NCBI GenBank assembly: GCA_032718475.1
Contig: JAUCBJ010003070.1
Span: forward strand, 62,001 to 126,000
Origin: Nemertoderma westbladi
Taxonomy: Eukaryota; Animalia; Xenacoelomorpha
Reading direction: 5' to 3'
Length of the DNA: 64,000 nucleotides
Within the stretch, counting starts at the first letter, position 1. Each line of letters starts with the position of its first letter. The position numbers were made by a program, and so were the translations under genes. Under the pieces are notes generated by a model. That model did not search any database. It saw only the letters and a program-made list of their open reading frames with translations, and had not been told where the DNA came from. Positions 11,754 to 64,000 of the stretch are shown one piece after another.

Positions 11754-11764
11754 ATAACTGTTAC
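11754..11764 (-). promoter_or_regulatory. Non-tRNA primer-binding site GTAACAGTTAT, complementary to LTR-internal ATAACTGTTAC (12500-12510)
   Basis: It abuts the 5' LTR end, has no TGG, and forms a perfect 11-nt inverted repeat with 12500-12510 (1526-1536 in the other LTR). Confidence 0.75.
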
Positions 11765-12932
11765 TGTTCTCACTTTTAAGACCTTTGGCAGTTTAACCCG
11801 CCAAATCTATATGTCTTCTAGGTTATAAATCGACTTTAGCCTATGACAAGTATTTGACACAAATAAATCCAACATTAGCCGAAGCCAGTCTATGCGCGAC
11901 CATTCACCCGCTGGATATACCCGGGAGACTGGATTCGGATGCTTTAATTTGATTGTGGTGCAGGCCTACCGTACTATTCGATTGATCGTTAATATAATTC
12001 CTGACAAATATCATTCACTTTCGGGAAATATTAGCAGTTCCTTTAGGACGTGGCGCTCTATCTATATAAACAGAGCTATGGCTTACACTAAACACAACGG
12101 AATGGATTATAAGTTACACATAAGGCGCATTCTTTAGGAGATGCTTTGTTACGCGGACAAGCACATACAGACTATTGCACACCGCTGCACACTGAATTGC
12201 CGATAGTCACTGATTTTAATCATACATAAAGAGAATAGCAACCGACATTTGTAGGGCCTATAAAATAGCATTCAATTCACTACAAACCACGATAATATAA
12301 GTCGCAATTGCTATATGTAGCCGGTCTCTCTAACCTTAGTGTATCAAGAAGATCGGGGTTTCTGATCGTTTATCGTTATTCTCCAAATAACAATATGTAA
12401 ACAACCGATACAATTAATAACAAACAGCAAATAGCAGTAAATAATGTGCAATATGTACCGTACCGTTATGTGTTCTTAGTGTCTCGTACCGCTGTACCGG
12501 TAACAGTTATGTGTTCTTATAATTAAAGCCATTCTAATGTTGGAATAATTCAGAATAATTCCATAGCCGATGTTCATGGCATCAGGAAAACCAACACACT
12601 GAACCCTGTGAGCTGTTGCAGGTAGCTTTCAACACAAAGAGGAAAAGCTCTCATTGGCAGAGTTCCATATTCTACAGATTCCACGAATGTCTAAATGCCA
12701 AACCTCCCTAGCCTTTGCAGCCCATAGCCAACACAAGGCTAAATCGCTCTGATTGGTCGATCATTGTTCTGATTGGTTAATCGAACAGAACAAAGAGGTC
12801 ATACGTACAGCAAATCAGCCAACCAGCGGGCAGATTGTGCCACTAGAAGCAACAGTTTAGAGGATTTGAGCGAATGGGGGAAAACTGGATTACAAATGGA
12901 AAAGGCCAGTTATATCCCCAAAAGCTTTTACA
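11765..12932 (-). repeat. 5' LTR of BEL/Pao element 1
   Basis: Direct repeat of 791-1958; reads TGTAAAAG...GAACA on the minus strand. Confidence 0.95.
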
Positions 12933-17278: not shown

Positions 17279-19384
17279 CTAGTCGATTATCGTGGACTCG
17301 GTTGGATCTTCATCGGGATGATGAACGGTAGGCACGTGCGCCTTCCATGATCCTTCCGGGTCCTTATTCTCTGTGTGGCGTTCCCCGTTATACGGTACTA
17401 ACGTTAACATCGACAGTCTGTTGACGAGGCCTCCCGCGTGGGTGAGATGAAAGTCACGAAAAACGCTGAATCCCACGCGCGTGAAAACATCACAGTGGGC
17501 GTCGGTGTTATAGAATGGTTGAAGGAATCGGCGAAATACTTCAGTATGGGTCCTCCCTTCCTCGTAAACTGTATGTCCCTCGCCGAGACATAACAGGTGT
17601 TGCTTTAACGTTCTAAGACACTATATCGGCGATGAAACATATGTTGACCGATGATTCTATTGCCAAATAATATTGTAGGATTATCCGCGGAGATGAGGTA
17701 ATCGCCCAGTATACACATCCTCTCCATTTCAACTGTGACTCAAACTCTTTGACATTGGGGGTATGTTACAAGCAAGGTCCATGGATTTTACTATCCGCTT
17801 AATCATGGTGTGTCGTTGTGTCGTCCCCTCCGGCATCGGCATCTTACGGTCGCTCCACTGTTGGCTGAAGACGTGAAGCACTCCACCTGGCACCCAAATT
17901 TGAATGGTTTTCGAAGTGAGGCTCTGCTGATGGATCCCTCCTTCGTAGAACATGTATCTGTTCTATCACAGAGATTGACTCGTCGTGTCCCAATCGTCAA
18001 GTAAATCATCAATGGGGGTCCATATTCTTCCGATGGATTTCTCATCATCGAGGCTAATAGGTTTCCCCGTCCAATTGGTTGCGATGTCAATGTCGGTTTC
18101 GAATGTGCCGACTCCGATCCATAATCGAATAATCCGCGTGAGATATCCTTGCAGGATGCAAGATGCGATATCCATACCCGTGCGATCAACTTCCTTAAAG
18201 TCGGTAATATGTGGAGGCATATGGCATACGATTTTCTGAATGATTATTCTATGCAACTCTGCAGCCTCTAACATATCACCAAATGTTACCGATGGGAGGA
18301 AATCTAGGTTAGATATGATCTCCGGATGCTCCACTATAGGAATCTCATAGGTCATATCCTCTCAAATCGGTACACTGATAGGAAAGTTGGTTGTCCTCGT
18401 GACCAGCACTACCGCTTGGGTAGAGTGGGGTTGAGATTCTCGCATCATCTCAATATGAGGTATCCATAATTTCTGCGACAAACGTTGAGCAAAGATAATG
18501 CTATCAAAGAGTTCGGGTGTCATTTCCTTGGGTTCGGTTTGATCGTGGGATATCCAATAGAATGGTAGGCTCGCGAGCCTTCCGCCGAACTCCTCGATCT
18601 TGCCTTTCTCGTACGCCTTGTACGCCCTATATAGGCTAAGAGCTTCCCTCTTCTCCTGTGTTGACTTGTTGGACTCGTTGTCTCGGACGTCGTCGTCGGG
18701 TTGGTCTATTATCATACTGTAGACGTCTGGTTTGACTAGTTTGGGTTCGGAAATCACGATCTTGCCCGCGTTCGGTCCGCTCATTTTGAACGAGTGATAT
18801 GAATTCGTCAAGGGGTATCCACCTTCCTGATAACGCAGACTCTGGTGGTTTGGGCATTGCGCTAGTATCGGCTTGGGGTTCTCCGGGTTCAAGCACTTAG
18901 GGATCACATTGTCTTCTTGCACACGCATACATCCTCCATATTTATAGAAGAGTTTCTAAATGGAGAACGCTTCCTTAGTCTCTGGATCTGCTCCTCGAGC
19001 GCGTCTATACAGGTGCATCCGCGTCGAATTCGTCCCTAGCTGCAGGCATGGGCTCACTAGCCGTCTGATATTGCAGCATGTGGTATAATCGACGTATCTC
19101 TATGTCGGGGTCCTCCCAGATGTCGCTGGCATCACACAACGCATCGTAGGGGTATAGCGCGTTAAACTCCTCGCATAAATCCTACGTTCTCTTATTGTAA
19201 GCGTTAGGTCACTGTAGCATAACGTTTGGATCCGCCTTTGACTTTGCGAGCTTAGCTGTACTCCTTGCCATGCTTTCAACTCCAAACACACTAAATTTCT
19301 TGGCTCCATATTGGTTGAACGGTGCCTGGTGCTCCTGTTCTTGCGTGAATCCCTGTGTTGTTCCTTATGGATCCTCTCTGCCAT
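17279..19384 (-). pseudogene. Degraded ~700-codon ORF of unknown function downstream of a BEL/Pao integrase
   Basis: Chain of same-strand ORF pieces (19100-19384, 18362-18928, 17966-18355, 17729-17953, 17279-17476). The middle three are in one frame, separated only by stop codons. GC content is higher than the flanks. Confidence 0.65.
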
Positions 19385-19440
19385 TATACGCGTATATATT
19401 GGTTACATATCATTACGTTTATCTATACCTTTGCATTCTA

Positions 19441-20075: not shown

Positions 20076-22370
20076 TTACTTATGAAGTTTACATGGAGAT
20101 TTGTAATCTCCCATCTTGTTTCTAGTCTCCTCAAGGAGTACGAGACATTGTACGGGTCTGTCAACAGTATGTCCGTCAATTGTCCATACAGTCACAGTCC
20201 GTATTACACCACCTGAAGTCAGGTGTGTGGTCAAAATGACTCCAGTCAACCAAAACCGTCTCTTTAAGTTGGTCTCTGCCAATAATTAATGAACACCACG
20301 CTTCAGACACCGGATAGTAAGATACCAGGTGGTCCTGGGTGAAATAGAGGGCAAATAATGCTTCTGTCATACATCCCAAAACTTATTGGCTAACAACTGA
20401 GTGATTTTTCAAGCTTTGTCGCCGTAACTGTCACTGTCCATAGGTACAGAAGTGGGCAACAGTATCATCGGCGCCTGCATAAGTAGGTGCGCTGGTGTCA
20501 AGGCAAACTGAGATTGTTTGTCGTCTGGAATCAAAGCGATGGGTCTGGTATTCAGTACCGCTTCGATCTCTATCAACAACGTAGTCAGTTGGTCGTCTGT
20601 TAATATGCGTTGCGTAGGTATTACTTTCGCAATTGCCGTCTTGATGGATCCAATTAATCTCTCCCAAACTCCGCCTCTCCATGGACTGTTGGAGGGGTTA
20701 AGGTTCCACACGATCTTGTGGGGACGTAGTTTGTCGGAGATTTGATTGTGGTCCAACTTCTTTATGGCTCTGGAGATTTCGTTCCTCGCACCCACAAAGT
20801 TGGTCCCTTGGTCGCAGTGTATGGATTTGACCAATCCGCGTCTAGCGATAAATCGCTGTAAAGCTAGGATAAATGCGTTGGTGGTTAGACGTTACGTGTT
20901 CAATATGAACTGCTCTACTGGCCATGCAGGTAAAGATCAGTCCCCAATGTTTCACCTGTACGCGTCCACGTTTTGCGTTTATATGTCCAAAACAGTCAAT
21001 CCCCGTCTCAGTAAATGGGGGTCTAAACGCCTGTAATCTAGCTAGTGGTAGTTCACTCATTTCCTGGCGTCCTATCCTCGAGTGTACCTTCTTACAGATA
21101 ACACAGTTGCATGTTACTGAACTCAATGCCTTACAAGGTCTAATCAGTACAAACTTCGAGTGTAAGTGTGATAAACAGTGATGTCTACCTATGTGTTTGA
21201 TTTGTACATGTGTGTCCAGTATCATAGCACGCTGTAACTCATGGTGTTGCGGTATGATGATAGGATACCTAAAGTCAATAGTTAGTCAGTCAAAGTAGTC
21301 AATCAATAGTATCAATAGTAGTCAGTAGTATTTAGTATTTATCAGTAGTATTTATCAATAGTATTTCCGGTAGACAATCGGTCGAAAGATACAGAAAACA
21401 GTCTGGCGAATCTGGTGAAATCCCCCGCGGAACATCTTCTGAAAGATTCGTTGGAACATCTGGTAGAATGTCTGGTGAGACGTCCGGCATAATGTCTGGT
21501 GGAGTGTCCAGGTCATTGGACTTAACTTGTCCTTGTTTCCTTTTGACCTTGGTGCTGGCTTTAGCTTTCGACTTGACCAGTGTCGATTTTTATCTCGGCA
21601 CCTTCTGGTATAGTGCTCGATGTCGCGTCGAATAGCGGCAGCCATTCATCCGATGGTCGTTGTAGGAAGTCGGGTCCTTTAAACCAGAAGGACTTATTGT
21701 CCGGTTTACAAAAGTCTATGGGTAACATTCCCTGTGATGCGATGTCAGCCGGGTTCAGTTTCCCTGGGCAGTGACGCCAGTCCTGTTTGAGCGACCTGTT
21801 TAGTATTTCAGACCGTCTGTTGGTCACGAAAGTCTAGAAATGAAAAGTCTCGTTATTGATGTACCAAAGCACTAACATTCCATCAGTCCAATGAATGTGA
21901 CTTTCAAGTTGGTCTCCAGTTCACGCTGGACTAGACTCACGATGTCGGTAGATATCGTCCCGGCTTGAAGCTCTCCCCGAGGCACTGTCATATACTTCAG
22001 AGGCATTGTTTTAGCTTTTGAAGTAAAGAAAGATACCTCGTAACTGTCCAATGTAACTTGTCTATGTAGGTATAAGGTAACCCCAAGCCCATCCTTGCTA
22101 GTGTCACTGGAGCTGTGAAGCTCCAGATCCGCAGGAAAGGTGGCCTGTAAAGGAAACTATACCCTCGGGATGGTATAGTCTTGTAGGAGCGTCAGTTGTG
22201 CCTCCCAGTCCCTCCATTGCTCGGCTAGCTTTTCTGGGATGGGATCGTCCCATTCCAGTCCGGCTTGCCAAATGCTGCGGAGTATGATCCTTGCGTGTAG
22301 GATCACTGGACTGATAAAAGGAGGGTCATACAAACGACTCATGGTCAATAAGCAGGTCCGCTTGGTCTGC
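20076..22370 (-). pseudogene. pol: BEL/Pao pol fragment (RNase H and integrase), degraded
   Basis: Motifs TKRTCL...LYDP...LEWDDPIP, WRHCPGKLNPADIASQG, HHCC zinc finger, GIDCFG, CDQGTNFVGA, WERLIGSIK and RPVQCLVLLE, with multiple stops and frameshifts. No LTR identified. Confidence 0.9.
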
Positions 22371-23121
22371 TGATGACTTAGGAGTACTATCAGAATCATT
22401 AGAGGGAGCCCAACGGCTCCTCAGCTCATTAGAACATGCTGCTTCTAGTGTTGGTCTTTTTATTAACTCCAGAAAGACCAAAATTCTGACAGTTAACTTT
22501 GAAAGTTCTCAGCAAGTCTCTGATCGGATGAGCATAAGCTCAAAGGATGGTATGCTTGAGCATGTGGACGACTTCTGTTACCTGGGATCATGGATCCGGA
22601 AGTCAGGTGAGGACCTTCGAATACGTAAGGGAAAGGCATGGGCAGCCTTGAATAGGCTTTCCAGGATTTGGAAGTCACCGATGCTGGGCTCTAACTGCTG
22701 AGGACACCAAATCTCACCACATTCACAAGAATGCTACGCCGGGTTCATTGTGTCAAGTACAATGCACACATCTCCAACCAGACACTATATAACATTGGAG
22801 GTGTCTCATTGGTTCCCCCAAGCTTGACACTAGAACAAAATCGCCTCCACTTTGCAGGACATTGCTTTCGCCGTGAGGACCAGCCAGTGCATAATCTTGT
22901 ACTTTGGCAGCCTCATGGAGTGAATAAGCATGGTGGACAGCCCATGACTTTCTTGAGACGCATCTTAAAGGACACTGGCCTTAAAGATGCGGATGATCTA
23001 GCAAATGTCATGGGTGATAGGGAGTTGTGGCGGTGCAATTTTGTTAACAAGCCGGCACAGCATTCTTAAAAATGCAGCTGCAATGCAGCATGCCGATCAT
23101 AGTAGTAGTATAGTAGTAGTA
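22368..23121 (+). mobile_element. 5'-truncated RTE-like LINE with internal deletion and (TAG)n tail
   Basis: Near-identical to 26513-27319. Encodes FCYLGSWI and FAGHCFR; ends in tagtagtagtatagtagtagta. Confidence 0.85.
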
Positions 23122-29603: not shown

Positions 29604-32600
29604 TGTAGTGATACAAACTCGCCACACTACATGGCTCGCCCCATATGCCAGCAGATACTCAGGGACTGCGGTACTGTAGGGATGACTCACCAGTATTCTT
29701 GGACTACGCCCTGACTCAGACTCAGGATACCACCGACCGATAGACAGCAGTTAGCTTGTCCAGTGGTCAGTACAGTTAGGTCTCCAGTCATAGGGCGCAC
29801 TGCCAGACAGACGGCCCAGCACAGCATTGTTGTTGTTTGTACTTGTGTGGTCACTACCTGTATATTATACGCCCGACATTATTCCGGCTCCACAGTTAGT
29901 CGTGACCTCCATACATGGCGCAGTTGTGTTTGTGTTGGTGAACTGAAACCACCACGCAATCCTAAACCTACGGACCTACCGGTACTCCTGTCTGCATAAC
30001 CCCAAACCCCGAGTAACGCAGAAGCGAACTGATGGCCGACCACAGAACTCCCTCCGAACAGGGCTCGGACGACACTGAACCCGCCATCGACGTTCTCAAC
30101 CACTTGCGTCAGGAGTTGGCAAAACGCGACGTTGACGCCACTCAACGCGAGGCGGCCGCAGACGCTCGCCTCGATAAACTAACTCAAATGCTGATACACC
30201 AGCAGGACAGTGCAGCACGCGAGCGCGCCGAGGCCAATGCGCAGATCGCGCAACTGTTGGGCGCACTCCAATCGGGCGCGGGTGTGACCAATCCCGGCGG
30301 GACCGGTCCGATACAACCCGCACCGACACGTCAACCACAACGCCGCGTTATCGATATCCGCGATCTCGAGAAAATCGATAGCGATGTCGACTTCACCTCG
30401 TTCCGTCGGTGGCGAGAGGCCTGGCGCGTCCACGCGCACCGCCAACAAGCATCCACATTCCCACGTGACGAACAGGTTTATTCGCTAATATCCGCAATTG
30501 GTCGAGACCTACAACAAACTCTCACCGTGACGCTCAACGTCGACATCGACGACGACGCAACCACCGTGGAGACGGTTCTCGACGCCCTCCAGGCGCACCT
30601 CCGGTCAAAGCGCAGTATCGCCATCGATGGAATAAAGTTCCACGACCGGAGACAGGGCCCGAACGAAAACTTCGACTCGTTCCGGATCGCCCTGGAGGAA
30701 CTCGGCGACGCCGCGGAACTTTGCGAACACTGTCGGAATCGACAGATCGTGACGCAGATCCTGGTCGGCATCCGTTCGTCGGAGACCCGCACCGAACTCC
30801 TCAAGGTTCTTCCACAACCTTCCCTCGAGGATTGCGTACGCATCTGCCAATCGATGGAGGCGAGCGAGCGTAACGACTCAATAATCGGGCGTGGGACCCC
30901 GGTTACGAAACTCACGTCGTCGTACAAACGTGGGCGTTCGACCTCCCGGCAAACCCCACCTCCGCCCCAACACGCATCTAATGCCTCCGGAGTATGCCGA
31001 AACTGTGGGCGCAGTCACCCTCCGGGAAAGAGTAACTGCCCCGCCAAAGACACGAAATGCCATAACTGTGGAAAGTGGGGCCACCTCCAGGCAGTCTGTC
31101 GTTCCGACTCGGTACATAAACCCAGTTCCAGGGGCGGCAAAGGAACGGGTAAACCCGCCTCGAGAGTGAACACGATCACGGGCGGCGGACCGATAAACTC
31201 AATAACATTCGCCTGCGACCTCCCCCGCATCGAGGTCGAGGTGCGCGGCGTGGACGATGATGACGTATGCGGAATCATACGCAATGTCCTCGCGGATAGC
31301 GGCGCTGCAGCCACCGTGCTAAGCCAGGAGATTTTCTACCGGATGGGCGGCTGTAACCAGGACCTTACTCCTCACCCCACTGCGGATCTACGCGCCGCCA
31401 ACGACCTTCCACTGGAGATAATGGGAGTTTTTGCTGCCCGAGTTTTCTTCGCAGGAAACTCGGCGATCGTGAACATCGGCGTCTCCCCGGAAGTCGACGG
31501 ACTCATCCTCTCCTTCCGGTCGCTCGTCGATCTCAAACTCCTCCACCCCAACTTCCCTCATCCCATCGCCTCTGTAGCATCTGTAACCGATCCTACGGCA
31601 CATTTACGCGCGAACCTCCTCAACGAATTCGCCGATGTATTCGACGACACCGATCGACCGCTCGGTACGATGGCCGGCGAGCCGATGCACGTTGAGTTGA
31701 AGGAAGGCGCCACCCCGTTCCACGCAAACGGCGCGAGGCCTATACCATTTGCGCTACGGGACGAGGTGCGCGCCCACCTGGACGAGATGGAACGACGGGA
31801 AGTCATCGAGCGGGTCACCGAACCTACTGACTGGGCCCACCCGCTCACTGTCGCTCGCAAACCCAATGGGAAACTCCGGGTTTGCGTCGACCTCCGCCAC
31901 CTGAACGACCAGGTTAAGCGGCCGTATTACCCCACCCCGAGCCCGCGGGTGGCGGTTACCGGGATATCCACGACCGCTAAGATATTCTCGGTATTTGACG
32001 CCGCCGCCGGCTATTGGCAGGTCCCCCTCGACCCAGCATCCCAACTCCTCACCACTTTTGTAACCCCCTGGGGACGGTATAAGTATAGGAGGGGCGTAAT
32101 GGGACTCATATCGAGTGGGGACGAATTCAATCGCCGGGGCGACGACGCATTGCGTGGACTTCCCGGTATGGTGAAAGTCGTCGACGACGTCCTTCTATAC
32201 GACAACAACCTGGACGACCACATCGCCAGTGTCCGACGGTTCCTCACGCGATGCCGTACAGCCGGCATCTCACTCAACCCTGACAAAATACAACTCGCCC
32301 AACCCAAAGTTAAGTTTGCAGGCTACATTGCCGGGGCCGACGGCATCCAGGCAGACCCATCCAAGGTCCGCGCCATAACGGATTTCCCTCGACCAACCAA
32401 CATTACAGACTTGAGGAGCTTTGTTGGGTTGGTCGAGCAACTCACCCCATTTTCGACAGACATCTCGGCTACGATGTCCCCCCTGCGCCCCCTCCTCCGT
32501 TCCAGGAATCCATACGAGTGGAACTCTGACCACGAGGCGGCATTCGAGGCGACCAAACGCACACTCGTCTCCCCACCCATCCTCGCTTCCTTCGATCCGG

Positions 32601-34788
32601 AGCTCGACACTAAGCTCGAGACTGACGCCTCAAGGAAGAACGGGTTGGGATACGCACTACTTCAGCGGCACGGGACCGACTGGAGGTTGGTAGAATGCGG
32701 TTCACGGTTTATTTCGGAAACCGAGTCGCGCTATGCGATGGTGGAGCTGGGGCTCCTCGCTGTTGCGTGGGCCGCCCACAAGTGCCGTCTCTACCTCGTG
32801 GGACTCCCACATTTCACGCTGGTGGTAGACCACCAGCCCCTGGTGTCCATCCTCGACCGCCAGACGCTGGATGCCAACGACAACTCACGGATCCAGCGAC
32901 TCAAGTCGAAACTCTCCTCCTTTGTACTTACTACCATCTGGAGGAGAGGAAAGGATCACCGCATTCCCGATGCTCTGTCCCGCTCCCCTGTCGACGACCC
33001 ATCCGACGATGATCTTGTTGACGACGGAGACATGGGCCACTACCTATGTGCTGTAACGTCACAGGTGGCTGCAACAATTGTGGGGGACGAACTCGATCCG
33101 GATGACGACCACCCCGATCTACTCCTCCAATCTTTGGCTGCAATGGCTCGGGCCGACTCCGATTACGTCGACCTCCTCGGCGCCATTCGCACCGGATTCC
33201 CGCCGCCGTCCCGCCAACTTCCTGGTGTCCAACCCTTTTGGTCGTTACGCGATGAACTTTCATCCGACCGCGACCTCGTCCTCTACGGACAACGGATTGT
33301 AGTCCCGCGGGCCTCCCGCTGGGACACTCTAGCGCGCCTCCACGCCGCACACCAAGGAGTCGAGAAGACGCTACGTCGCGCCCGCCAGACAGTGTACTGG
33401 CCCGGACTGACAAACGACGTTCGGACCACCGTCGAGTCCTGTGAGCCCTGCCTCACTCGACGCCCCAGCCTCGCGAAGGAACCCATGCTACGGGAGCGCG
33501 AGGCCACAAGACCATTCGAGGAAATCTCCGGAGATCTCTTCGCACTCGACGGTCACAACTTCCTCGCCATCGCGGATCGTTACTCCGGTTGGCCCGAAGT
33601 CTACAAATACGGGAATCCCCCAACCTCTGCTTCTACCGCTACGCATGTGAGGGACGTATTTACGCGTTTTGGCGCCCCCTTACGTTTCGCTTCCGACGGC
33701 GGTCCACAATTCGCTGGAAAGAATTTTACCGACTTCCTCCAGGTCTGGGGGGTCGATCCCGTAGTATCGTCTCCCGAATATCCCCAGAGCAATGGCCACG
33801 CGGAGTCTGCCGTGAAGGCACTCAAGGCGTTGCTCACCAAGACCGGGGGGAAAATGAACTCAGATGCTTTCCAGGAAGGACTCCTAGAACTCAGAAATTC
33901 CCCCCGCGCCCATGGAATGTCGCCGGCCCAGATTCTCTTTGGGCACCCCATACGGTCGCGAGTGCCAATGCACAGCCGCGCTTTCCTCCGGGAACACCAA
34001 CTGACCCGCGCGGAGCTCGACGAGGCACTGCCCTCACTCCACGGCACCCAGATGGCTGCCTACAATCGCGGAGCCAAACCCCTTATTCCATTCGCTGTAG
34101 GGGACCCGGTCCGAATTCAAAACCCAGTCTCGAAGCGATGGGACCGCACTGGGATTGTCACGGAAACAAGACCCAACCGGAAGTACACCGTACGTACCCC
34201 TTCCGGTCGATGCCTCACCCGGAACCGCCGCCACCTCATCTGGGACACCGCCGCTACCGGCACACGAGAGTGCACCCCACTCACACCAACAGCCATCGGG
34301 ATACCGAGGGACAACGGCCCAAGATCACCTGCAACGCCACCGAAGCGCGTACACTGGGCTGACACTCCCCCCACTCAACAACCCGATCGGCCTCGTAGAG
34401 CCTACCCCTCCCGCGTGAGGCGTCCCCCCAACAGATTCTGAGAGTTCGTTGACCCCGCAACGAACTAGAAGGGGGGTGTAGTGATACAAACTCGCCACAC
34501 TACATGGCTCGCCCCATATGCCAGCAGATACTCAGGGACTGCGGTACTGTAGGGATGACTCACCAGTATTCTTGGACTACGCCCTGACTCAGACTCAGGA
34601 TACCACCGACCGATAGACAGCAGTTAGCTTGTCCAGTGGTCAGTACAGTTAGGTCTCCAGTCATAGGGCGCACTGCCAGACAGACGGCCCAGCACAGCAT
34701 TGTTGTTGTTTGTACTTGTGTGGTCACTACCTGTATATTATACGCCCGACATTATTCCGGCTCCACAGTTAGTCGTGACCTCCATACA
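29604..34788 (+). mobile_element. Full-length Ty3/Gypsy LTR retrotransposon (Mag-like)
   Basis: 312-bp LTRs at 29604-29915 and 34477-34788 that appear identical; TSD CATAC; PBS TGGCGCAG at 29916; PPT AGAAGGGGGG at 34467-34476. Confidence 0.97.
30032..34441 (+). CDS. gag-pol: Gag-Pol polyprotein (1469 aa): capsid, two CCHC knuckles, protease, RT, RNase H, integrase
   Basis: CRNCGRSH and CHNCGKWGH knuckles; LADSGAA protease; LRVCVDLR and VVDD in RT; TDAS/DH/DALS in RNase H; HHCC, SDGGPQF and SNGHAE in integrase. Domain order is PR-RT-RH-IN. Confidence 0.97.
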
Positions 34789-48005: not shown

Positions 48006-49052
48006 TTAGGGCGGTGCGTTTTTTACTTTTTATCGATTTCATTGTTCTACCGGTGCACAAAAGTTGCCAAATGGTAAAAAAATAAGGCAAAAAAAATTCT
48101 TTCAATTTCATCTATATCTTCACGGATCCCAAGAGGGTTGAAATTTTGTGCCATCGCGATGCACCATAATGAAATGTATAACAATATAACACATTGATGA
48201 AAGATCAATGACTCAAAAAAGAACTTCCTGCATGCATCAAATGTCATGAAATGGGTCCAAACTTTGTTAGATACCAAAATTTTAACTTTTGGGTCAAGGG
48301 AAGTAGTGCCACAGGCACATGGCCAGAACCTACCATTTGGCGCAAGTGATGATTATTCTCAATTTTCGCGATGGCCAACTTTGATTTATCCTACTGCATT
48401 CATATTATGCTCATTAGAACCGCAATGGCCGATTTAGTGGGGGTAGACACCTTCAAAACAAACGTAGAGCGAATAGTTCTTGAGATATCGCAGAAAATGT
48501 GAAGTCCGGCACAAGTCTACATTACCGCCTTGATGTGATATGGACAAATACACAACAAATGATATTTTGAATTATATCAAGGAATCAAATTCGCTCTATG
48601 CTTATTTTGATGGTGTCTACCCCCACTAAATCGGTCATTGCGGTTCTAATGAGCATAATAATAATGCCGTAGGAGAACTAAAAGTTGTCCATCACCAAAA
48701 TTGAGAATAATCATCACTTGCGCCAAAGAGTAGGTTCTGGTCATGTGCCTGTGGCACAACTTCCCTTGATCCAAAAATTAAAATTTTGGTATCTAACTAA
48801 GTTTGGACCCATTTTATGACATTTGATGCATGCAGGAAGTTCTTTTTTGGGTCATTGATCTTTCATCAATGTGTTATATTGTTATACATTTCATTATGGT
48901 GCATCGCGATGGCACAAAATTTCAACCCTCTTGGGATCCGTGAAGATATAGATGAAATTTAAAGAAAGATTGAAATTTATTTACCATTTGGCAACTTTTG
49001 TGCACCGGTAGAACAATGAAATCGAAAAAAAGTAAAAAACGCACCGCCCTAA
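48006..49052. mobile_element. Palindromic (foldback) DNA element with ~480-bp arms
   Basis: TTAGGGCGGTGCG...CGCACCGCCCTAA with long, highly similar inverted arms; flanking AGAGC duplication at 48001-48005 and 49053-49057. Confidence 0.9.
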
Positions 49053-49540: not shown

Positions 49541-50767
49541 GCTGATCACGATACAACTCGTTAAAAATAAGTTGTGGTAACGAAACAATCATTTTTGGTG
49601 TTTGTCTGGTGGGACGAAAAATACAAGTTAGCGTAAAATTTCAAACGCCAAAATTCGATTTCTTCGAAATTTTGGTTGGATAATAACGATATTTGGTAAT
49701 GGTGAAAAATATCGAGACTTGAAAAATATCGAGAGTAAAAATAACGAGAGTAAAAATATCGAGAGTAAAAATAACGAGTGTTGAAAAATAACGTGATTAA
49801 AAAATATCGAGAGTAAAAATAACGCGAGATGAAAAATATCGAAAATAACGAGTGTTGAAAAATATCGAGAGTAAAAATAACGAGTGTTGAAAAATATCGA
49901 GTGTTGAAAAATATCGAGAGTAAAAATATTGCATTTTGCTTGAGCATTTTATTTAGAATTATGGAACAATATTGCAGTGCATGGGTTACAACAGTGCAAG
50001 TGCAAGTAAATGGCATTATGTAATACACCTTGGGTACCCATTTACCAGATTTATTATACTAGCTAGTTTTTGCTATTTTTTTAATAAATATTATAAAAGA
50101 AGTGCTAGCTATAAATTTTGATAAATATTATAAATATTGTTAAATATTATATTAGAACACGTATAAGCTACCAAATGTTGATAAATATTGTTGTTCTAGA
50201 ACATTTTTAGTAAAAGAAATTATCATACAACCCTTATTTAAAAAAATTGTTACTGTCGATATTTTTACTCTCGATATTTTTCAACATTCTATATTTTTTC
50301 AACACTCGATATTTTTACTCTCGATATTTTTCAACACTCGATATATTTCAACACTCGATATTTTTCAACACTCGATATTTTTCAACACTCGATATTTTTA
50401 CTCTCGATATTTTTCAACACTCGATATTTTTACTCTCGATATTTTTACTCTCGATATTTTTCAACACTCGATATTTTTACTCTCGATATTTTTCAACACT
50501 CGATATTTTTACTCTCGATATTTTTCAACACTCGATATTTTTACTCTCGATATTTTTACTCTCGATATTTTTCAACACTCGGTATTTTTACTCTCGATAT
50601 TTTTACCCTCGATATTTTTACTCTCGATATTTTTTGAACTCTCAATATTATCGTTATTTTTCAACACTCGGTGTTTTTACTCGCGTTATTTTTACTCTCG
50701 ATATTTTTCATGTCTCGATATTTTTCAATATAACTCGATATTTTTGAGTGTCATGTTCGTGATCAGC
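49541..50767. mobile_element. Foldback-like element with inverted minisatellite arrays
   Basis: An (AAAAATATCGAGAGT)n-type array at ~49700-49930 faces (ACTCTCGATATTTTT / CAACACTCGATATTTTT)n at ~50255-50745. Outer inverted motifs are GCTGATCACGA and TCGTGATCAGC. Confidence 0.7.
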
Positions 50768-52345: not shown

Positions 52346-53475
52346 GAACCAAATGCCATACCCGGGCGATGAGTTCCTCCAGTAGTCTCAGCAGCTCCTC
52401 CCATATCAGGCGTGTTTCTCCTGGTTTTAGAACTCATTATTGGGAGTCACTCCCTGTTCATACTAGGCATCATCGTCGACATGACGATGGGGAGAGGGAG
52501 CGGCGATCTGATCGTGGCAGCGGCCATCGGGAGCGGAAACACACCAGGGAGCATAGCCGTGGGAGTCCGGGGTACCGAAACCGGCAGTGGAGGGGGTCCA
52601 GTCCCAGACGCTATTGGTATTCCACCTGTAGAGGGTAACCAGTACCGTAAATCGTATGACGTGACCTAATGAAACTAATAGAACGTCGGCCCTCTCTCTG
52701 TATAAACTTATATAGTATACATTTTTACGTCCTGCCCTGTTATATATTATTACCATTTTCGAATAAAAATAATTCTAAAATTTTTAGGTACTTTCTATAT
52801 AAAAAAATAGGAGAGTGATAAATTTTACAATGCTCTTTTCGTAAAACATTAATGCGGAAGCCAAGTTTTGCTTTCAGTTCCAATTCGAATAAACACAATT
52901 CAATGTTGGTACCTATCTGATATACATACAATATTGCAATGTTCTAGAATTAATATATACGTAAATAATAACCTGAAGCTAATAAGACAGAAGTAATTAT
53001 TACAGTATTATTTAATTATTACGGTTTTTATTTCCGTATATTAATATTAGAAGAACATTGAAATATTGTGTATATTATTAATTTTTGAGAATTGAATGTA
53101 ATAACAGCATATAGTGTATGCATTTAAAGCAATTATTCTAAGAATCGTGTTCTAATACATCACGCATTCTCAAGTTTTTCTAATGATTACGTTATTTTAA
53201 GTCCCAAATGTCTTAAAATGAAAAATATGAAAATTAAAATGTATTTGTATTGTGTTTATTCGCAATGTTCTAAGCGCCAATTAAAATTTAACCCTATTAG
53301 ATCTGGGCTATAAAATGTTGTACAAATACCGGGGGTGGGGGGGTCATATTGACCCATCCCTCTAAAATCTACAAATTTTTACAAAAAATCTGATTTTTTG
53401 TTTGTACGTAGGTATCACTAGTGTGGATCCGACCGAAAAAAAATTTCGAAAAAATTTACTGGGGTGGTTATATTG

Positions 53476-54131
53476 TGTGACGGGATCGAGTCTGAGATCC
53501 CGACCGGGTAAGATTGTACGCGTCACTTGGCCGCTGGGCTGCTGAGCTATTATCTTTTGCCGAAGGCCGTTGGGGAAAATAACAGAGTTTGTTTCTCAGT
53601 ATTAATAATCTCAGAAATAATAGCACAGTCAGATGTATACAGGTATAGTAACAATAATCAGCATAGCATAAATGACGACAGTAGCACATATGAAATGATG
53701 GTCAAAACTATGCCAGTCCGCAACTGTGTGATAATGAACTGACCGGTAAATCAGTAATCAGAGTAACTATATGATTGATACATATTGGATTGAGCTCTAT
53801 GCTACTACTGTGGCCTTTGCTACCCAATGGATGCCCTTCTATCCTTCCTCACGTGCTTCCCTGCCCTCTATTGGCTTATATACTAATTGTCACTTTGACA
53901 CTCCCTGTAGGTGCTACTCCCAGATGCTAGCCTCGCTAGCTGGGTTGTCCCTCTTAGGTGGTTTGACCTCTCACCTCTCTCTGTGGCTTAGGGCGTGTGT
54001 CGCCCCCCCCCCCCCCCGAGTTGGTTATGAGGCGAGATTATTTATTGGTAATTTCTCATCGCCAACTATATTGGTAAAATGCCACTGGTCCCATTTTCGG
54101 TGGGTGGTGTAGGGAATTGAATCCGCTTACA
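53476..54131 (-). repeat. 3' LTR of BEL/Pao element 3
   Basis: Direct repeat of 61097-61588 plus 62171-62323. Confidence 0.92.
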
Positions 54132-56003
54132 CTCCACCCCCATGCTATCTTCCTGGTGAGAAGATAGCATTAACCTTAAGTATGCTTCAATTCCGCTGGA
54201 ATCCAATCTAATATTGGATGTGGGGTGGAGTTTTCTTCTTGGTGTCGGCTTTCCAGACCGGCCCCCATGGGTCTGTTGTTACTACCCATCCTCGGTGCAA
54301 TCGCGAGCTATGTTGCACCAAGGTATCTGGTGTCTCTGTTTGAGACCATTGTCTTCTCTCTGCACACATTTTTTTTTCTAACCTTCCTCAAATCTTCCTC
54401 ACGGACTTTGCTGTCCCTTCCTCTCTCACCAGTCCCTTGGGACTCATCATCCTCCGTGCTCGCTCCCCACACTTGAATCGTACTCCTTTCATTTCCTCAC
54501 ATGCCAACACCTCCTCCCCATACTTCCCCCATTCCCCCATTTTCGTTTTCACTCTCCACACACTTATCGGGTCCCACACATGTGTGCACCATGTTAGTGG
54601 GATCCGTCTAAGTCTCGTCCTGCCGTTCTAGTCAATTAGTCCCCAGTCCCAGTAGCTAATTAGAAAAAGGTTGTACTTGACTACAGTATTTATTATATAA
54701 TATACATACGAGTTATATATAATAATTAATTATTATAATTATATATTATATACATTATATTATACGCTCGTCTACATGACGCGTCTTAACACCCCCCCCC
54801 CCCCCCCCCCCCCTGACTCGTCACGTGATATGACTCGTCACTCCCGGTCCCTCCCATTCCACGCTCTCTCCGTCATCACGATTCTCCTCTCTCACCAGAC
54901 TGGTGGTGCCTTAGAAAGGCTCATGATGGCAAGAGAGAACTAAATATGGTCTTAATTAGTTTAAATCAATGATGGCTTTCCTCCTACCTTGTTCTTTCCT
55001 TCATGCTAATATTCCCCGAATTTTATTTTATTTTATTTATGTTCCCCCCTGCCTATGCTATTATCCTATCTGCCTTCTCAGTTCCTCACGTGGCACCCTC
55101 AGTGCCCACAGGTTCTATGGTACTGTGTACCCTACTACTCCAGTATGCGTACATACCCCCCAATTCCGTAGGATGTAGGTCCTCTTAATCTTCGCCCCAC
55201 TCTCCTTGTAAATTCCAACTCTCTTGGAAATGACCTTCCCTTCTCCTCCACCCTTAAATCGGGTCTTTCCGTCATCTCACTAATCTCCTCGTGGTCCCCT
55301 GGCAGCAAAATGCCACCCTCCATCTTGTCGTCACTTGGCGGTAGAATGCCGCCCTTCATGCCATCCTCACTGGTACATGCCACCTCTGCTGGCCTCCCCC
55401 TCAATATGTGCGCAGGCATTAAAGCCCCCAATGACCACCGGTCGTCCTTCGGTACACATAAGGACTTTACCATTTAATGCCCCTTCACACTCTGCCAGCC
55501 CCATGTGCGTGTACAACACGCCTCCTCTAACTTTCCTGCCTCTTTCGTCATGCTTCGTTATCGGCTTCTCCACCCTTGGTCTAATCTTCCCACATCCTCT
55601 CCCCTTCCATCCTGTCTACTTACTCGACCTCCTCCCCATCGGTATGCTTCTTAATTGGACCGGCATCTCTTCCGGACATCTCTCTCCGGATGTCTCCGGA
55701 TATCTCGCCATCCACTCTTCTCCATCCTCATACCGATACTCGCCGGGAAGATCTATGTTCCATCCCATCGCCTCTAGGTCCTCTGCACCGAACCCGTTCT
55801 CCTCCGCCCACTCTCTTGCTGTTGCTTCTCCTCCTGACTTATCTATCGGCGGTATTTCTCAGGACTTATCCTCCACCCTTTCACCACGCTCCAGTATGCG
55901 TGGTTCCAGATCCATACCCATCCCTGACTCCTGGTGTCCTTCCTCGGGCCGCTTCCCATATTGGACCTCCCCAACGCCCATCTTTGGTTTCTCCTCTATG
56001 TTC

Positions 56004-59000
56004 TCAAAAGCACCGGACAGCATGCACCCTGATGTCTCGGACACACCAAATGGTGTCCTCGTCTTTATTGGGCCAGTGAGCGTCCATCCAAATGGCGTGA
56101 GAATGGTACGTCTGTAACCCTATCCTTGCGGCCACCCAACTCTCCGTTAGTGTGAATGCTGCTCCACTATCGACCAACATCAGTGTCGTAACCGATAGCC
56201 TGTCTTCTCCTTTTATTCTCACTGGTACTACCCCGAGTAATACTGTCCTCCTCCTCTTTGCTCCCATCGTGCTCGTTGCCATTGTTTGGCCTCCAGTCTC
56301 ATCAGTCTTGTCGTATTCTATCGGTGGTTCCTCGCATTCATCCTTCCAATGTCCTCCTACTGTGCATCGATGACATAGTCCATTCTTATCAGCGTAGGCT
56401 ATCCGATCTTGTTTGAGTAACACATGCCAATGCTTACAGTCTATGGTCTTATGGGTTCCATCTCTATGCAATTGACATTTGTAGTTGGGGTTGTAGCGTT
56501 CCTTGTATAGCCCTTCACGTATCGTGCGTAGATCCATATCTAGCAGTTTAGTGTTTTGGTTATTTGGATTCGGCCCACTGGGGGTATTGGGATTGTATTT
56601 TTTTGTATTGTTATTGTGCTTCTGTCCCTGCCACGGTGTGGCCCTACTCCCAGCTGCTTGTGGACTACAAGTCCCCTGCGTGGCTGCATGCGGTAGCGAC
56701 TGTCTCACTCTTGGAAATGCAGGATTATGTTCGGGTTCAGCTCCCCTTGTCACATTGGGGACCCGAGTGTTACGGTGTTTACTGAGGCTAGTCTAGTGAC
56801 TTGCCTCAGATTCACCAATGGCTTTGTTGGTCGGGGTGGAACATGAGAATAGCCTCCAACTCCAGAATCCCTCTCCCCCTCACAATCTGGCCTCCCTGGT
56901 GACCCAGGGTTTGGGCCAGAAAGGTCATCAGGAAAGGGACTCAAAGAATTGTTGGCTTCTCTCTCTCCAGTAGGGGGTGAGACAGGCAGCCGGTCAGGAG
57001 ATAACTGACGCCTGTGAGGCCGATTGTGTCCGGTAATTCCACTGGCCTCTAGTGGTCGGACCTCCGCATTACTAATGTAATCCATAGTGGGGAGTTGGGG
57101 GGTGCTTTTTTGCCGAGGCAGCTCTCGGGGCAAATACCACACCCTGGTTTGGTGGGTGTCGCAGTGGAGTCAGATATGAGGCCCATCACCCATATCTACA
57201 CTGGCGCACATCACCCACCATTGGCTGTGCAGCTCATCTGCTGGGTCATGCCCTGTACCCCTGCTGCCAGGTGCAGGTCGCAGTGAAGTGTACTCAGAGT
57301 GGACATGAGAACACTATACTTCTGACCAGCCATTGGTAGATCACCAAACTGCCTGGCCAGGCCATATACCCCTGCAACCAAGTATATGGGTCCTTAATCC
57401 AGGACCAACGGCGTCCATATCCCAGAACGAAGGGGGGTCCTAGTTACAGGACCAGATTTGCCCTAGTAAGAGGGTCTATGCAGCTACAGGTGGCACCTCC
57501 TTTATGCTGCATGGAGGTGGCAAGTTTTCTTGATCAATGACCTAGAATACCTGACCTGACCAAATTCCCTGTCCAGGGCTCGCCATGCAGTCGTGAATCC
57601 TCATTCAATACCTTGGTATTGCTCTCACGATGTCGTATGCTGGCCCCCCTGTGTAGACTTGTAAGTATTTAAGGCACTCCACCTGCGTCAAATTCTTCGT
57701 TAAGATTTCATTGCTGTACATACGCCGGAATTGCAGATATTCCTCCGGCTTACTACCATCGAATTTGAAGGGCTCCACTGGGGCAGGCTCGATCCTAGTC
57801 TTCAAGTGCGTCGATGAGTGTTGCCATTCCCATCGCTTGTACTTCTAGCGCGCTCGATGGTAGAGATACAGACTCCCTTGCTGTTGGGTGTGGTTCACCC
57901 TTCGGGCCCGTCGACTTTCCTTGCATTGGATATATCATCGGGTAACGGTCCCCTCCATATCTCCGTGTCGCACGACTTATGTTGGGTCTGAGGGGTTTGG
58001 GGTTTTTGTTCTTGGCTGCTGTAATTGCTGATACTGTAATGGGGGAATGTCACCCTGCCCCCCCCCCCCCCCCCCCACCGGTGTTATGTTTGGTACTGGG
58101 GTTGATGTTATCATGTTGGGGCCCATAGACCTATCGGCAATACCTCCCCCCTCCCCTGGGTATATATTATATCCCTGCATGTTATAGTCATACTGGTGTG
58201 CAGCTACCGGTATAGGCCTATCCACTTCTTGCCTACCGACCGGTATGTACGCCGCGACCTCCGGGTTTAATCCCGTTGTCGCGCTACCCTATCGCCTACA
58301 CTATCTCTCCCAGCATGGCCTATAGTATGTGCAGTAAGGCCTACAGTATGTCCTGCAGTCTGCCTGTGTCCTTCCGGACCGAAGTTTAATCTTCTCGAGT
58401 ATTCCAAGAAGTCCTCCCCGCAACTACCATATTCTCGATCGGCAGCTAAGTTCCGATGGAAGTTTCTCTTCGATCCCCTCTTCTGTCTTCATCCTCGTAC
58501 TGGTACATTCTGTACCCCTCTCCCGGTGTGTGGTATATCCCACCAGGTTGTGTTTCTCCGAGGCGACGGCAATCTCCCGGAGTACGACCCCACCGGCTCT
58601 CCGTCTCCATCTCGATTACTGACGGTTCGCTGTCCGTCCTTCCCCTCCAGTTGCTCGTAGCAACGCTCCCTCGATTCTCCTCACCTCGTCTGATTCCAGT
58701 GCAGTGTTCCTCCTCGTGAGATCTCACATCGACCTCCCGATAAACTCCACTGTTCTTCTTCCATCTTACGACTGGGCTCGATGTTTTCTCACTCGCCCGC
58801 TCATGGCACCAACTTCTCTCCCTCCGCTCGGTTGGATGGCCCTGGGGATATTCGCAATCCCCCTACTATTCTCTGTCATTGGGTGCCGCGGTTCACTTAA
58901 CTCACCACGTGCATTATCCGCCGATGCTTGTGGGACATTCTCCACCCCCCCCCCCCCCCCCCCCCCCCCCCCTCTCGCCCGCCATCGGGTGCCACGGTTC

Positions 59001-60800
59001 ACTCAACTCACCGCGCACATTACCCGTCGACGCTCGTGGGACATTCTCTGCCCCCCCCCCCCCCTCTCGCCACTAATCTGCTTGTGGTGGGGTGCCCGTA
59101 GCCCCCCCCCCCCCCCCCCCGCCCATCACCTCTTTCCTCGCCCCTACGCCCCCCTCTAGTTGACGCATTATCTCTACCCTCGCTGGGTTTATTCACCCCC
59201 TCTCCTCCCTGCGCAACTGTGTGGCCTTGCAGGCTCTCATTGGCCAGCTCGCTTGTTCCCCTTACGTTTGTATTAATTGCACCATTAATAATTTCGCCCT
59301 GGTTTGTTACACCGATATTAATGATATTACTTTGATAAATTTCTTACTTTGATAAATTTCTTCGGGGTTATTTATTATATTATTACCTAAATTATTGTTT
59401 AAATTATTTAAATTATTTTGTTCGGCATTATTTATATCATTATTTAAATTATTTTGTAAATTTAAACTAGGATTATTATTACCGGGTAAAATAAATTTCC
59501 TGCAAAAAAGATTTGATTAGTGTTATCTATTACGGTACTATTAATATGAACTCCCTCAAACGTATTATTATTACCCCCCCCCCCCCCCCCGCACATACGG
59601 TCACACCAGTCTTGGGTCTGTCATCCGGTACCTGTAAGTGGGGTATTAACAAAGGTTTCCATCACCCCTGGTTCCTTGTAAATACTACCCGAACCAGCCT
59701 CGCTCTCCGATAAACCCATTTTTGCCAGCTCTAACCGGTGCTTTTGTTTCGCTTCATATTGCATTAACACCCTCAGCTGGGTATGCATATCCTCCCACAT
59801 GCATTTACCGCTCTCTCTCTCTCTCTCTATCCTCCCTAATACTCTCGTTGGCTAGCTCTGCCTCTCTCGCCTCCCGCTCTCTACGCTCATTCACCTCTCT
59901 CGCCTTCCGCTCTCTGCGCTCGTTCACCTCTCTCTCAATCTTCTCAGCCCTCCTCGCTTCCCGCTCTTTGTGCTCATTAATCTCTCTCTCCTCCTGATCT
60001 TTGCGCTTGTTTTCCACTCTCTCCTCCTGCTCTTTGCGCTCGTTTATCTCTCTCCTTCCCACTCTTTGCACTTGTTTATCTCTCTCTCCTCCTGCTCCCT
60101 ATAGTTTATCGCCACCCTCTCAGCCCTCTCTTTACACTCTCTTGCTAATTCTCTCTCCCTCTCTAGTAACGCAGTTCCCTCATCCAACTGCCTTTCTAGT
60201 TCCATTTGATCTAGCGCAACAATGTCTAATTGACACGCCAGATCTATCTCTAACACCCGTCTTGCTTTCGTGGAAGATGTAGCGGACTTATCGGTCACGA
60301 CGGACTCCCGTCGCCTCTCTGTCCTACTAATTTTCCCCCGTTTGCTGGGATTCCTACTAACCGACGACACCAAATCTTCGGGGTTAACCTCGGATTCGCC
60401 GTCGTACGGGTCCGCCCATCCCACTAATTTAATTCCCCTGGCATCTACTAAGTAAGGCCCTACGTACACCACGTCTGGTACCATCACCTCGGACTGCCAC
60501 AATTCAAACAGTTCTGTGGCAACCCCCCTCGCCCTCTCACTCGCCAGTTCCCCTTGTCCAAAACGGACTAAATAATGGAAATGTTTATTGGACTCACCTA
60601 GCCTCTGATAATGTGTAGGCTGGTCTACCTTTCTCCCTTCTTTGGCATCCTTTAGTATCTTCTTCGTGGCGTTGTACACCCATCGAAGGCGATCACTCGT
60701 CCCGATGTCCTCCTCGTTGACTCTACCTTCCCTCCTCGTCCGGCATCGTACCATCGGCCCCACCGTTGCCATTCCGGTGGGCCGTTCGTCGCCCTTGGCC
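56004..60800 (-). pseudogene. gag: Fragmented BEL/Pao gag-protease
   Basis: Coiled-coil pieces (59805-60772); FKFDGSKPEEYLQF...LKYLQVYTGGPA (DUF1759-like); knuckles CQLH...HKTIDC and LCHRCTVGGHWKDEC; protease LVDSGAAFT. Confidence 0.8.
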
Positions 60801-61085
60801 TAAGGTTGGCCGGTGACTTCGGTACTCCGACCGCCATCATCACCTCGCGTTGACTCCTCATTTCCCTACTCGTTGTCGGCCGCCCTCCGCATGTGTATCC
60901 GGATTGTCCCTTGCTGGTGAGTCCGGGGTGGCGGGCCGGTATCGTCTCGTCGCAGCCTCTCGGATCGTTTGGTTGGTGTCGTCCGGGGTCCGCAGCGGCG
61001 TTCTTTCTCCCTCCGATTCTCGGGGTGTCTGTTCGCTCATCTTTGGGCCTCTCTCCTCCTCGGGTTGTGGCCACAGCTGTTGTTG

Positions 61086-61096
61086 ATAGTTTTGAC
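61086..61096 (-). promoter_or_regulatory. Non-tRNA primer-binding site GTCAAAACTAT, complementary to LTR-internal ATAGTTTTGAC (61322-61332)
   Basis: It abuts the 5' LTR end and forms a perfect 11-nt inverted repeat with 61322-61332 (53701-53711 in the other LTR). Confidence 0.75.
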
Positions 61097-62323
61097 TGTG
61101 ACGGGGTCGAGTCTGAGATCCCAACCGGGTAAGATTGTACGCGTCACTTGGTTGCCGGGCTGCTGAGCTAATATCTTTGGCCAAAGGCCGTTGGGGAAAA
61201 TAACAGAGTTTGTTTCTCAGTATTAATAATCTCAGAAATTATAGCACAGTCAGAAGTATACAGGTATAGTAACAATAATCAGTATAGCATAAATGACGAC
61301 AGCAGCACATTTGAAATGACGGTCAAAACTATGCCAGTCCGCAACTGTGTGATAATGAACTGACTGGTAAATCAGTAATCAGAGTAACTATATGATTGAT
61401 ACATATTGGTTTGAGCTGTACACTACTGTGGCCTTTGCTACCCAATGGATGCCCTTCTATCCTTCCCCACGTGCTTCCCTGCCCGCTATTGGCTTATATA
61501 CTAATTGTCACTTCGCCACTCCCTGTAGGTGCTACTCCCTGATACTAGCCTCGCTAGCTGGGTTGTCCCTCTGAGGTGGTTTGACCTCAATTCAATTCAA
61601 TTTCAATTCAATATTTATTTATTTTCCCAAATGTTACGTACATACAGAAATATTACATACACAAACAGTTAAATTTGATAATACAATATTATATATGATT
61701 TGTAGAACTCTATTTGGGACTGGAGACTGCAGGTAGCTCTAGGGGGCTAGTGAGTCGCAGCCACCAGGTGGGGGGGGGGGGGGGGGGGGGTGGTCTGCAA
61801 GCAAGCCTAAAAGATATAATAAGATTAAAAAGAAAGTATATGAATATTATATTTAAAAATTGAATAAATGGTACAAATAAAATACTGTATTATAATTTAA
61901 TTGGGGGTGTAATTTAACATGGAGACATTTACTGTATTTTATTTTCCAATACTGGTGTTGACGAAAAGTTATAATTTGAGATGGGTGCACGTAGGGGCTT
62001 GACGGGTTATGCTGTAAATTATATGCTAAAGTGATTGAAGTGGTTCATTTTTTAGTTTCTTGCAGAATACAATTTTGTTTGGAAGAGTTTTAATATTTTG
62101 ATTTAATGTATTCCATATTTGGGGACCGTTGTAACTTAGAGATTTTTGACCAATGTGGAGATTAAATCTCTCACCTCTCTCTGTGGCTTAGGGCGTGTGT
62201 CGCCCCCCCGAGTTGGTTATGAGGCGAGATTATTTATTGGTAATCTCGCATCGCCAACTATATTGGTAAAATGCCACTGGTCCCATTTTCGGTGGGTGGT
62301 GTAGGGATTTGAATCCGCTTACA
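61097..62323 (-). repeat. 5' LTR of BEL/Pao element 3, interrupted by a LINE
   Basis: Matches 53476-54131 apart from the 61589-62167 insert. Confidence 0.9.
61589..62167 (-). mobile_element. 5'-truncated CR1/L2-group LINE 3' end inserted in the LTR
   Basis: Minus-strand ORF tail SLSYNGPQIWNTLNQNIKTL...FCKKLK; (GAATT)n tail; absent from the other LTR; flanked by a CTC duplication. Confidence 0.7.
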
Positions 62324-64000
62324 TATTGCAGCACCAAAATTACAAGTAGTGCACAATTTTCACAAAATTTGAAAGTTACATTTTTCAGCTAATTGTTTTT
62401 CAATACAGGCTTTCTGGAGCGCAAAATACATTGGAAAATATTTAAAAATGATATGATTACTATAAATGGCTGTTTAGTCCTCTCTGCGTAGGCAAAAAAT
62501 GAAAAAAAACAAGTAACCAGCACTTTTCAGTTAGAACACAAAATTTTTAAATCACTTATACGATGCTATAAATTCACATTTTCAGGTTTTCTAGAGCGCT
62601 GATTCTAATGGAATACATTTCTAACATGCCAGATCATTGCTACTTGTATTTTTCGGCGTAATTTGGCAAATTTTGGTGCTAGGACCAAATTTCGTACCCA
62701 TCACCAAAAAGTACAATTTTGCGATTTCCAGTGCTGATTTTATTGATTCCATCGGATTCAGGACCCTCATAAACCTGTATAACGCAAGAAACAAGGTGAT
62801 ACTATCTACTGATTAACTTGCTTATTTTCCAAAATTTGGTGCTGGCACAACAATTTTCACCCACCGGCGAAAAATACAAGTTTGAAAACTCTTCTGAAAT
62901 TTTTACTGATTCAATTGAATTCAGAACCCTCACAAACCCGTATAACGCAAGAAACAAGGTGACACAATCAATTGATATATATGATGGTTTTCAAAATTTG
63001 GTGATAGCACCACATTTTGCACCCACTTCCGAAAAATACAAGTTTGAGATGTCTAGTTCGATAATTATATATTCCATTGAATTTAGAACAGTCATAAACC
63101 TCTAAAATGCAAGAAATAAATTGTCACAAGCAATTTTATCTATTGAATGGATTTTCAAAATTTTGTGCTACCACCAAAATTTGCACACAGCACCGAAAAA
63201 TACAAGTCTGATACGCTTGGTGCAATTCTTATACATTCATCGAAACCAGAACCCCAAAAAACCCCAATTGCATAAAAAACAAGTTTCAAACAATCAATTT
63301 ACAAAATTTACATATTTCAAAATTTGGTGCTGGCACCAAAATTTGGCACCCACCGAAAAAAACAAGTTTTAAATTTTTAAATCAATTTATATGAATTCCA
63401 TCCAATTGCTAACACCAAGAAACCGGTGTAAATCAAAAAGAGAGATGTTACAATTCATATTTAATGAAATGTAATTTTCAAAAAAAGTCTCAAAAAAAGT
63501 GCCAAAAGTAGAGTTAAAAAATGGTGCTATAACTCGAAAACTACCAACTATTTTTGAAAACGGTTTTCACTACTAGGAAGACAATAGATTTTTATGAAGA
63601 TTCGTAAAATTTCAGATTCCCAACTGCGTTTGTTTCAGAATTATAATAAAAAAACCAGAGGGGCTTCATATTGACCCCCCACGGGTTTAATAGGGATAAA
63701 AGTTATATAACACACATCACCAATAAAAGTTTTAAATGAATTAAAATAAATAAAATTGTTTTGCGTATCAGTGCGGATGCTAGTAATCAGAGTTAATTAT
63801 TATTGTTGTTTATGGTAACTGGTGAGTCGTATTCGATACTAAAAAAGTGTGAACGGAGTTCCAACGGGAACGCGTTCCAGACTATAGGGGCGGACACAGA
63901 GAAAGCACGTTTATCATATAAGTTGAGGTTGAACCTAGGGACACTCAAGGGTTGAGAGCCGCTGTATCGAAGATTACGGCTTGGTGAATATTGAGTAATG

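Follow-up and report, generated by a model that had tools for sequence, protein, structure and literature searches.

Element 3, a degenerate BEL/Pao derivative on the minus strand at 53476-62323 of the 64,000 analysed nucleotides (the window), carries directly after its 5' LTR an 11-nt stretch that is exactly complementary to a piece of that same LTR. Judging from the sequence, it is likely that reverse transcription is primed in some form from the element's own RNA. For element 3 we favour, with moderate confidence, a Tf1-like version of this, in which an 11-nt LTR piece near the start of the RNA would act as primer instead of a tRNA. Self-priming had been proposed in the original prediction from two elements of the window, and it now finds support among related elements, as relatives that encode Pol share the 11-nt design and relatives with a tRNA-type site do not.

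On the minus strand, the 5' LTR of element 3 (TG...CA, 61097-62323) ends at 61097. The adjoining 11 nt (61086-61096), the primer-binding position, start with GT, lack TGG and are the exact reverse complement of 61332-61322. On the plus strand, ATAGTTTTGAC has a single occurrence in the window, at 61086, and GTCAAAACTAT is found at 61322 and 53701. The former of these two copies (61322-61332) is the putative self-primer of the 5' LTR, and the latter (53701-53711, LTR position 421) is the identical 11-mer of the 3' LTR, both on the minus strand of the element. The match covers 11 nt and no more, with a C before and after it, and the putative primer begins 236 nt before the LTR end. The C-flanked complement is thus confirmed as originally described, and it is also retained in the 3' LTR. 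The chance of such a match, first put at about 1.5e-4, is 1.7e-4 when composition is taken into account; 2 of 3000 shuffled LTRs reach it with offsets 0-3 allowed. At the other internal positions of element 3 a match of 10 or 11 is never found (0/6905).

Element 3 is an old copy, because its LTRs are 93-94% identical (53476-53970 vs 61097-61588, 94%; 53968-54131 vs 62168-62323, 93%) and its 5' LTR contains a 579-bp insertion. This insertion (61589-62167, minus strand) lies in the upstream part of the LTR and consists of a short open frame followed by a simple-repeat tail, which we take to resemble the 3' end of a LINE; in the family contigs, other copies join across it. The 3' LTR (53476-54131, minus strand, 656 bp) is preceded by a purine-rich tract (54132-54149, minus strand), and a 5-bp target-site duplication flanks the element (left copy 53471-53475, right copy 62324-62328). 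Loose contig ends at 62323-62326 read into the left flank of element 3, which resembles the signal of an empty site. The element sits inside a very-high-copy repeat (62324-63400 of the window, contig depth above 100000, 163-bp tandem unit). Its broken gag-protease region of BEL/Pao type (56007-60799, minus strand) gives weak BEL/Pao profile matches (E 5e-4 and 5e-3; protease E 6e-4), and no match to RT, RNase H or integrase was found in element 3. The family is abundant in DNA contigs from two studies. In a homologue search with the 262-aa frame of element 3 none of 794 candidates passed, and a scan of viral contigs gave 20 pattern matches, none of them confirmed.

The window consists of animal-like repetitive DNA with several LTR elements, and the same layout is seen in element 1 (791-12932, minus strand; LTRs 791-1958 and 11765-12932, 99%; 5-bp target duplication). 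Its primer-binding position (11754-11764, minus strand, 11 nt) also starts with GT. The putative self-primer lies at 12500-12510 (minus strand) with a second copy at 1526-1536, and its LTR position, 423, is nearly equal to the 421 of element 3. Here 9 of 3000 shuffles match as well. The LTRs of the two elements are unrelated in sequence, as the original prediction had it, their alignment being at shuffle level (local score 25 against a shuffle mean of 21.8, with 22 of 200 shuffles scoring as high), and the two putative primers do differ at 4 of 11 positions. About 40 nt downstream of its 11-mer stretch, element 1 has a degenerate second version of it whose pairing with the primer site is incomplete (12520-12455, minus strand). 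Past its primer site, element 1 carries a perfect 9-bp hairpin (11752-11726, minus strand), and an 8-nt palindrome occurs in element 3 at about 61057-61064; both are possible packaging or dimerisation signals.

Element 1 has a BEL/Pao gag-protease frame of 1336 aa (5591-9601, minus strand). Its Gag matches Pfam DUF1759 (E 1e-9) and gives 13 hits, most of which carry BEL/Pao Pol domains, and the only Pol remnant of the element itself is a short C-terminal piece of RNase H. BEL-type Gag, with DUF1759 and cysteine-histidine knuckles, and protease were found, the match of element 3 being weak. A representative search with element 1 returned distant relatives only, one of them below 1e-30. Before its 3' LTR there are extra broken frames of 88-229 aa (2040-3428 of the window, minus strand), and for those of 229 and 172 aa no Pfam match was found. 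A stretch of similar coding look (about 17200-19400, minus strand) follows the integrase of a third BEL/Pao element; the extra frames at both places are possibly an accessory gene of this BEL/Pao lineage.

The third BEL/Pao element is represented by a broken pol (RT end, RNase H and integrase; 20079-22420, minus strand), which a non-LTR repeat cuts at about 22370, and an LTR pair for it was not found. The window also contains an intact, young Ty3/gypsy element (29604-34788, plus strand) with identical 312-bp LTRs, a single 1474-aa frame and a TGG-type primer site; used as a control, it shows a self-match of at most 6 nt. There are no tRNA genes in the 64 kb. At 48006-49052 and 49682-50741 there are long inverted repeats with arms of 378 bp (94%) and 15/17-bp tandem arrays in an inverted pair, possibly fold-back or MITE-like elements.

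A survey of BEL families whose internal region starts with GT had been named beforehand as a check. Relatives came from metagenome contigs, in which 544 BEL/Pao stretches were confirmed; the best 80 of these were used, and BEL-type Pol (RT, RNase H, integrase) is present in them. LTR ends were placed by eye where the contigs allowed and then scored by a script, the choice of junction not being blind. Among these best 80, seven Pol-coding loci without a TGG site allow the LTR end to be placed, and in all seven the site begins with GT at offset 0-3. They belong to 26 loci on the GT side; the LTR ends of two others (L001 and L006) are unplaceable and the remaining 17 lack a usable junction. The TGG label was given to 28 loci by motif scan and eye, and the 16 of these with a placed LTR end, several of which are near-copies, serve as controls.

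Exact pairing over 11 nt is present in five of the seven GT loci. In L002, which has a 2007-aa frame, the match is contiguous and occurs in both LTRs, though the LTRs are only 74% identical. In the other four (L004, L008, L016 and L017) the 11 nt are found only across a predicted LTR intron of the form GTAAGT...AG, 105-426 nt long. The sixth locus, L024, is a decayed sister of L016 and pairs over 10 nt, a match gained when the acceptor filter was eased from 8 to 7 pyrimidines between scorings. The seventh, L014, has a GT site and no match longer than 7, even with relaxed splice sites. For comparison, a match of 11 is reached at no more than 3 of 2000 downstream positions in any one element, and none of the 16 TGG-type controls has a match longer than 7. 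The LTR of L016 has two donors and two acceptors (about 8788-9131), and only the joint that skips the middle gives the 11-nt match. The LTRs of L002 (911-914) and L004 (92-93) end in TA, not CA, with a spacer of 2-3 nt before the GT site.

The seven GT loci and the 28 TGG loci are separated in an 84-row integrase tree by a single branch, whose SH-like support is 100; the tree (FastTree) is without reference elements and midpoint-rooted for drawing only, and implies no monophyly or subclade name. The pol of the third element of the window falls on the GT-site side on a long branch, thus this genome has carried Pol of that lineage. Elements 1 and 3 prefer the Gag-protease profile of the GT side over profiles of six samples, equal in size, from the other side (182 vs 137-161, 40 vs 9-18 and 19 vs 4-8 bits), the placement of element 3 depending on short, divergent Gag-protease pieces with mixed pairwise ranks. 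The closest named relatives of L002 come from corals, a brachiopod and a crinoid, a host range that the marine range described for Sinbad (PMC8220671) resembles, as a lead only.

Self-pairing in elements 1 and 3 is probably one inherited trait and not of independent origin, because the best-scoring lineage is the same for both elements and its readable members share the pairing. Element 3 had been presented as an independent second case, which can no longer be maintained: the sequences are unrelated, yet both elements score best with the GT-side lineage. Nor do the two elements show compensatory changes, as was claimed, since their 11-mers sit in unalignable LTRs. The only true matched change is between L016 and L017, where position 11 differs on both sides and the pair is kept. 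The shared ATA...AC of the two primers is general in one half only: the 3' AC is common to the six matched loci (L002, L004, L008, L016, L017, L024) and to elements 1 and 3, but the ATA start is not.

The claim that selection preserves pairing has to be divided in the same way. Pairing is indeed kept across families, but the complementarity may be templated. When an LTR element makes its plus strand, the primer is copied and restores the primer site, so the complementarity may be rewritten in each cycle rather than only selected. Such templating would also point to priming, without proving selection. In the family contigs covering 61062-61362, there are 29 substitution places in 61097-61301 versus none in 61302-61362, and within 61322-61332 no substitution reaches at least 4%. 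One family contig per run has an extra base at the 5' edge of the 11-mer, which is itself intact. This supports a constrained region of about 60 nt that holds the 11-mer and lies near the edge of the examined stretch, and it is not specific to the 11-mer. At position 11 of the primer site (61086), another letter is present in 93 of 168 in run X1 and 124 of 130 in X3, these two runs being one sample, and in 0 of 50 in X2. No matching change at 61332 is seen at 4% or more in the family contigs. This variant counts weakly against strict pairing, the depth being low and the pair terminal.

We suggest the following mechanism for element 3, by analogy with Tf1. The genomic RNA would begin at or shortly upstream of 61332, and the 11-mer would fold back onto 61096-61086. 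RNase H of a Pol given in trans by a related element would cut after the 11th base, so that the primer would end in AC, and RT would extend from the cut through the LTR end and R. Later, plus-strand synthesis would copy the primer and rewrite the primer site. The fixed length of 11 nt fits this proposal, because plus-strand copying would run over a primer with its 5' end 11 nt away from the cut. In some members of the lineage the LTR intron is predicted to split the 11-mer and splicing would build the primer; element 3 has a ready-made 11-mer. By the same analogy a start of the genomic RNA within a few bases of 61332 is a real possibility, although we stop short of calling it probable.

The start could instead lie well upstream, for example about 30 nt behind a TATA-like box at 61500, and the 11-mer would then be the 3' end of a longer primer or be excised on both sides. 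There is no TATA box 30 nt upstream of 61332, and the TATA-like box of element 3 (61494-61500, minus strand), a possible alternative promoter, lies about 170 nt upstream of the 11-mer; L004 repeats this arrangement, with a TATA-like box about 170 nt upstream and none at -30. In addition, the first exon of L004, L008, L016 and L017 would shrink to 4-6 nt if transcription began at the 11-mer. However, no TATA-like box is present upstream of the 11-mer in element 1, L002, L008, L016 and L017, and pairing ends at 11 in all seven exact cases, whereas a long primer would be over-copied in plus-strand synthesis. The predicted pairing of the helix in element 3 ranges from 0.0 to 0.99 depending on the RNA ends that are chosen, a sensitivity too great for folding to locate the start. 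Extending the RNA by 150 nt on its upstream side abolishes the predicted helix in both elements 1 and 3 (0.00-0.04), which also argues against an upstream start. We regard an internal self-primer of this kind as unlikely.

A somewhat less probable reading is that the 11-nt pairing forms a structural helix, used in packaging, dimerisation or as a translation switch, and that a tRNA fragment, another small host RNA or a protein is the primer. Half-tRNA priming does exist in Copia lineages according to PMC6317226, and L014 has a GT site without any match. On the other hand, between families the primer sites differ at most positions and still pair with the LTR, a combination not expected if one fixed host RNA were the primer. 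The pairing is also found exactly at the primer position and with a fixed length.

It is quite improbable that the 11-mer marks the cleavage and poly(A) site in the 3' LTR, with the 3' end of the RNA annealing to the primer site. This would fit poorly with the hexamers: AATAAA or ATTAAA is missing 10-30 nt upstream of the 11-mer end in elements 1 and 3, L002, L004, L016, L017 and L024, and where present it lies inside the 11-mer (L008) or downstream of it (L004, L016, L017, L024 and element 1). No canonical hexamer was found downstream of the 11-mer in element 3 and L002. In the six elements that have one, the hexamer position is as expected if the 11-mer lies near the start of R. Least probable is a chance match combined with an ordinary tRNA site further downstream, which the first TGG of element 3, 23 nt past the LTR, and the tRNA priming of Belpaoviridae given by ICTV (PMC8742986) would allow, but which is close to refuted by spacers of 1-9 nt between LTR and TGG in the 16 tRNA-type controls, the lack of TGG in element 1 until 194 nt past the LTR and the recurrence of the match in seven elements, each at a chance level of 1e-3 or less.

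Returning to self-priming, a wider proposal can be put forward tentatively. A large, mostly marine branch of BEL/Pao might have exchanged tRNA priming for an 11-nt self-primer that arose separately from that of Tf1, always ends in AC and does without the Tf1 fold. In many families splicing of an LTR intron would build the primer, so that splicing would license the RNAs that can be copied, and elements 1 and 3 would be intron-less forms. A primer built by splicing would, if true, tie reverse transcription to host splicing. Self-priming elements would need no host tRNA, and annotation software for which a tRNA site is obligatory would overlook or misinterpret them.

The Belpaoviridae profile of ICTV describes priming by host tRNAs, with an 18-nt site that binds tRNA-Arg or tRNA-Gly, and calls the replication of the family poorly understood (PMC8742986). 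LTRs, a polypurine tract, Gag with DUF1759 and cysteine-histidine knuckles, and protease are common to that profile and the elements studied here. The 18-nt tRNA site is absent from elements 1 and 3, whose sites start with GT and which are filed as BEL/Pao-derived by protein. Self-priming in BEL/Pao was not found in the titles and abstract openings searched, a scope that most subscription journals, repeat-database reports and supplements lie outside. The main texts of PMC554778 (Sinbad) and PMC3118150 contain no occurrence of PBS, tRNA or priming; their figures and supplements could bear on novelty.

Outside BEL/Pao, self-priming has been predicted for the plant lineages Tcn1 (Ty3/gypsy) and TAR (Ty1/copia), where PMC6317226 requires that 10 nt or more of the LTR can pair with a region beginning 0-5 nt past the 5' LTR. 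That prediction is made from sequence alone and by the same criterion as here, in other superfamilies and other hosts. Whether self-priming is ancestral or has been reinvented repeatedly is a question raised in PMC3601003. If our reading is true, BEL/Pao would be the third LTR superfamily with self-priming, which bears on that question.

The closest parallel is the Tf1/sushi group of Ty3/gypsy chromoviruses, for whose members Tf1, Tf2 and Tj1 self-priming is described (PMC7175516, PMC10085805, PMC4600332). Like the elements here, these lack a tRNA site, and the position directly behind their 5' LTR can pair with part of that LTR. The Tf1 primer is also given as 11 nt (PMC7175516), and the identical length would suggest a shared RNase H geometry. 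A primer at the 5' end of the RNA is a feature of Tf1/sushi, and here it is proposed by analogy; in Tf2 a non-productive downstream start is reported for unstressed cells (PMC5341516). The differences are equally clear. Tf1/sushi elements belong to Ty3/gypsy, whereas the elements here are BEL/Pao by protein match. The "pretzel" fold of Tf1, with its three duplexes, was not found in elements 1 and 3: the leader-side duplex does not surpass shuffles (0.61 in element 3, 0.90 in element 1), and a U5-side duplex is present only in element 3, with 2 of 500 shuffles as good. Unlike in Tf1, the 11-mer of several relatives is split by a predicted intron. As far as sequence can tell, the elements of the window are Tf1-like in layout and are not members of the Tf1/sushi group.
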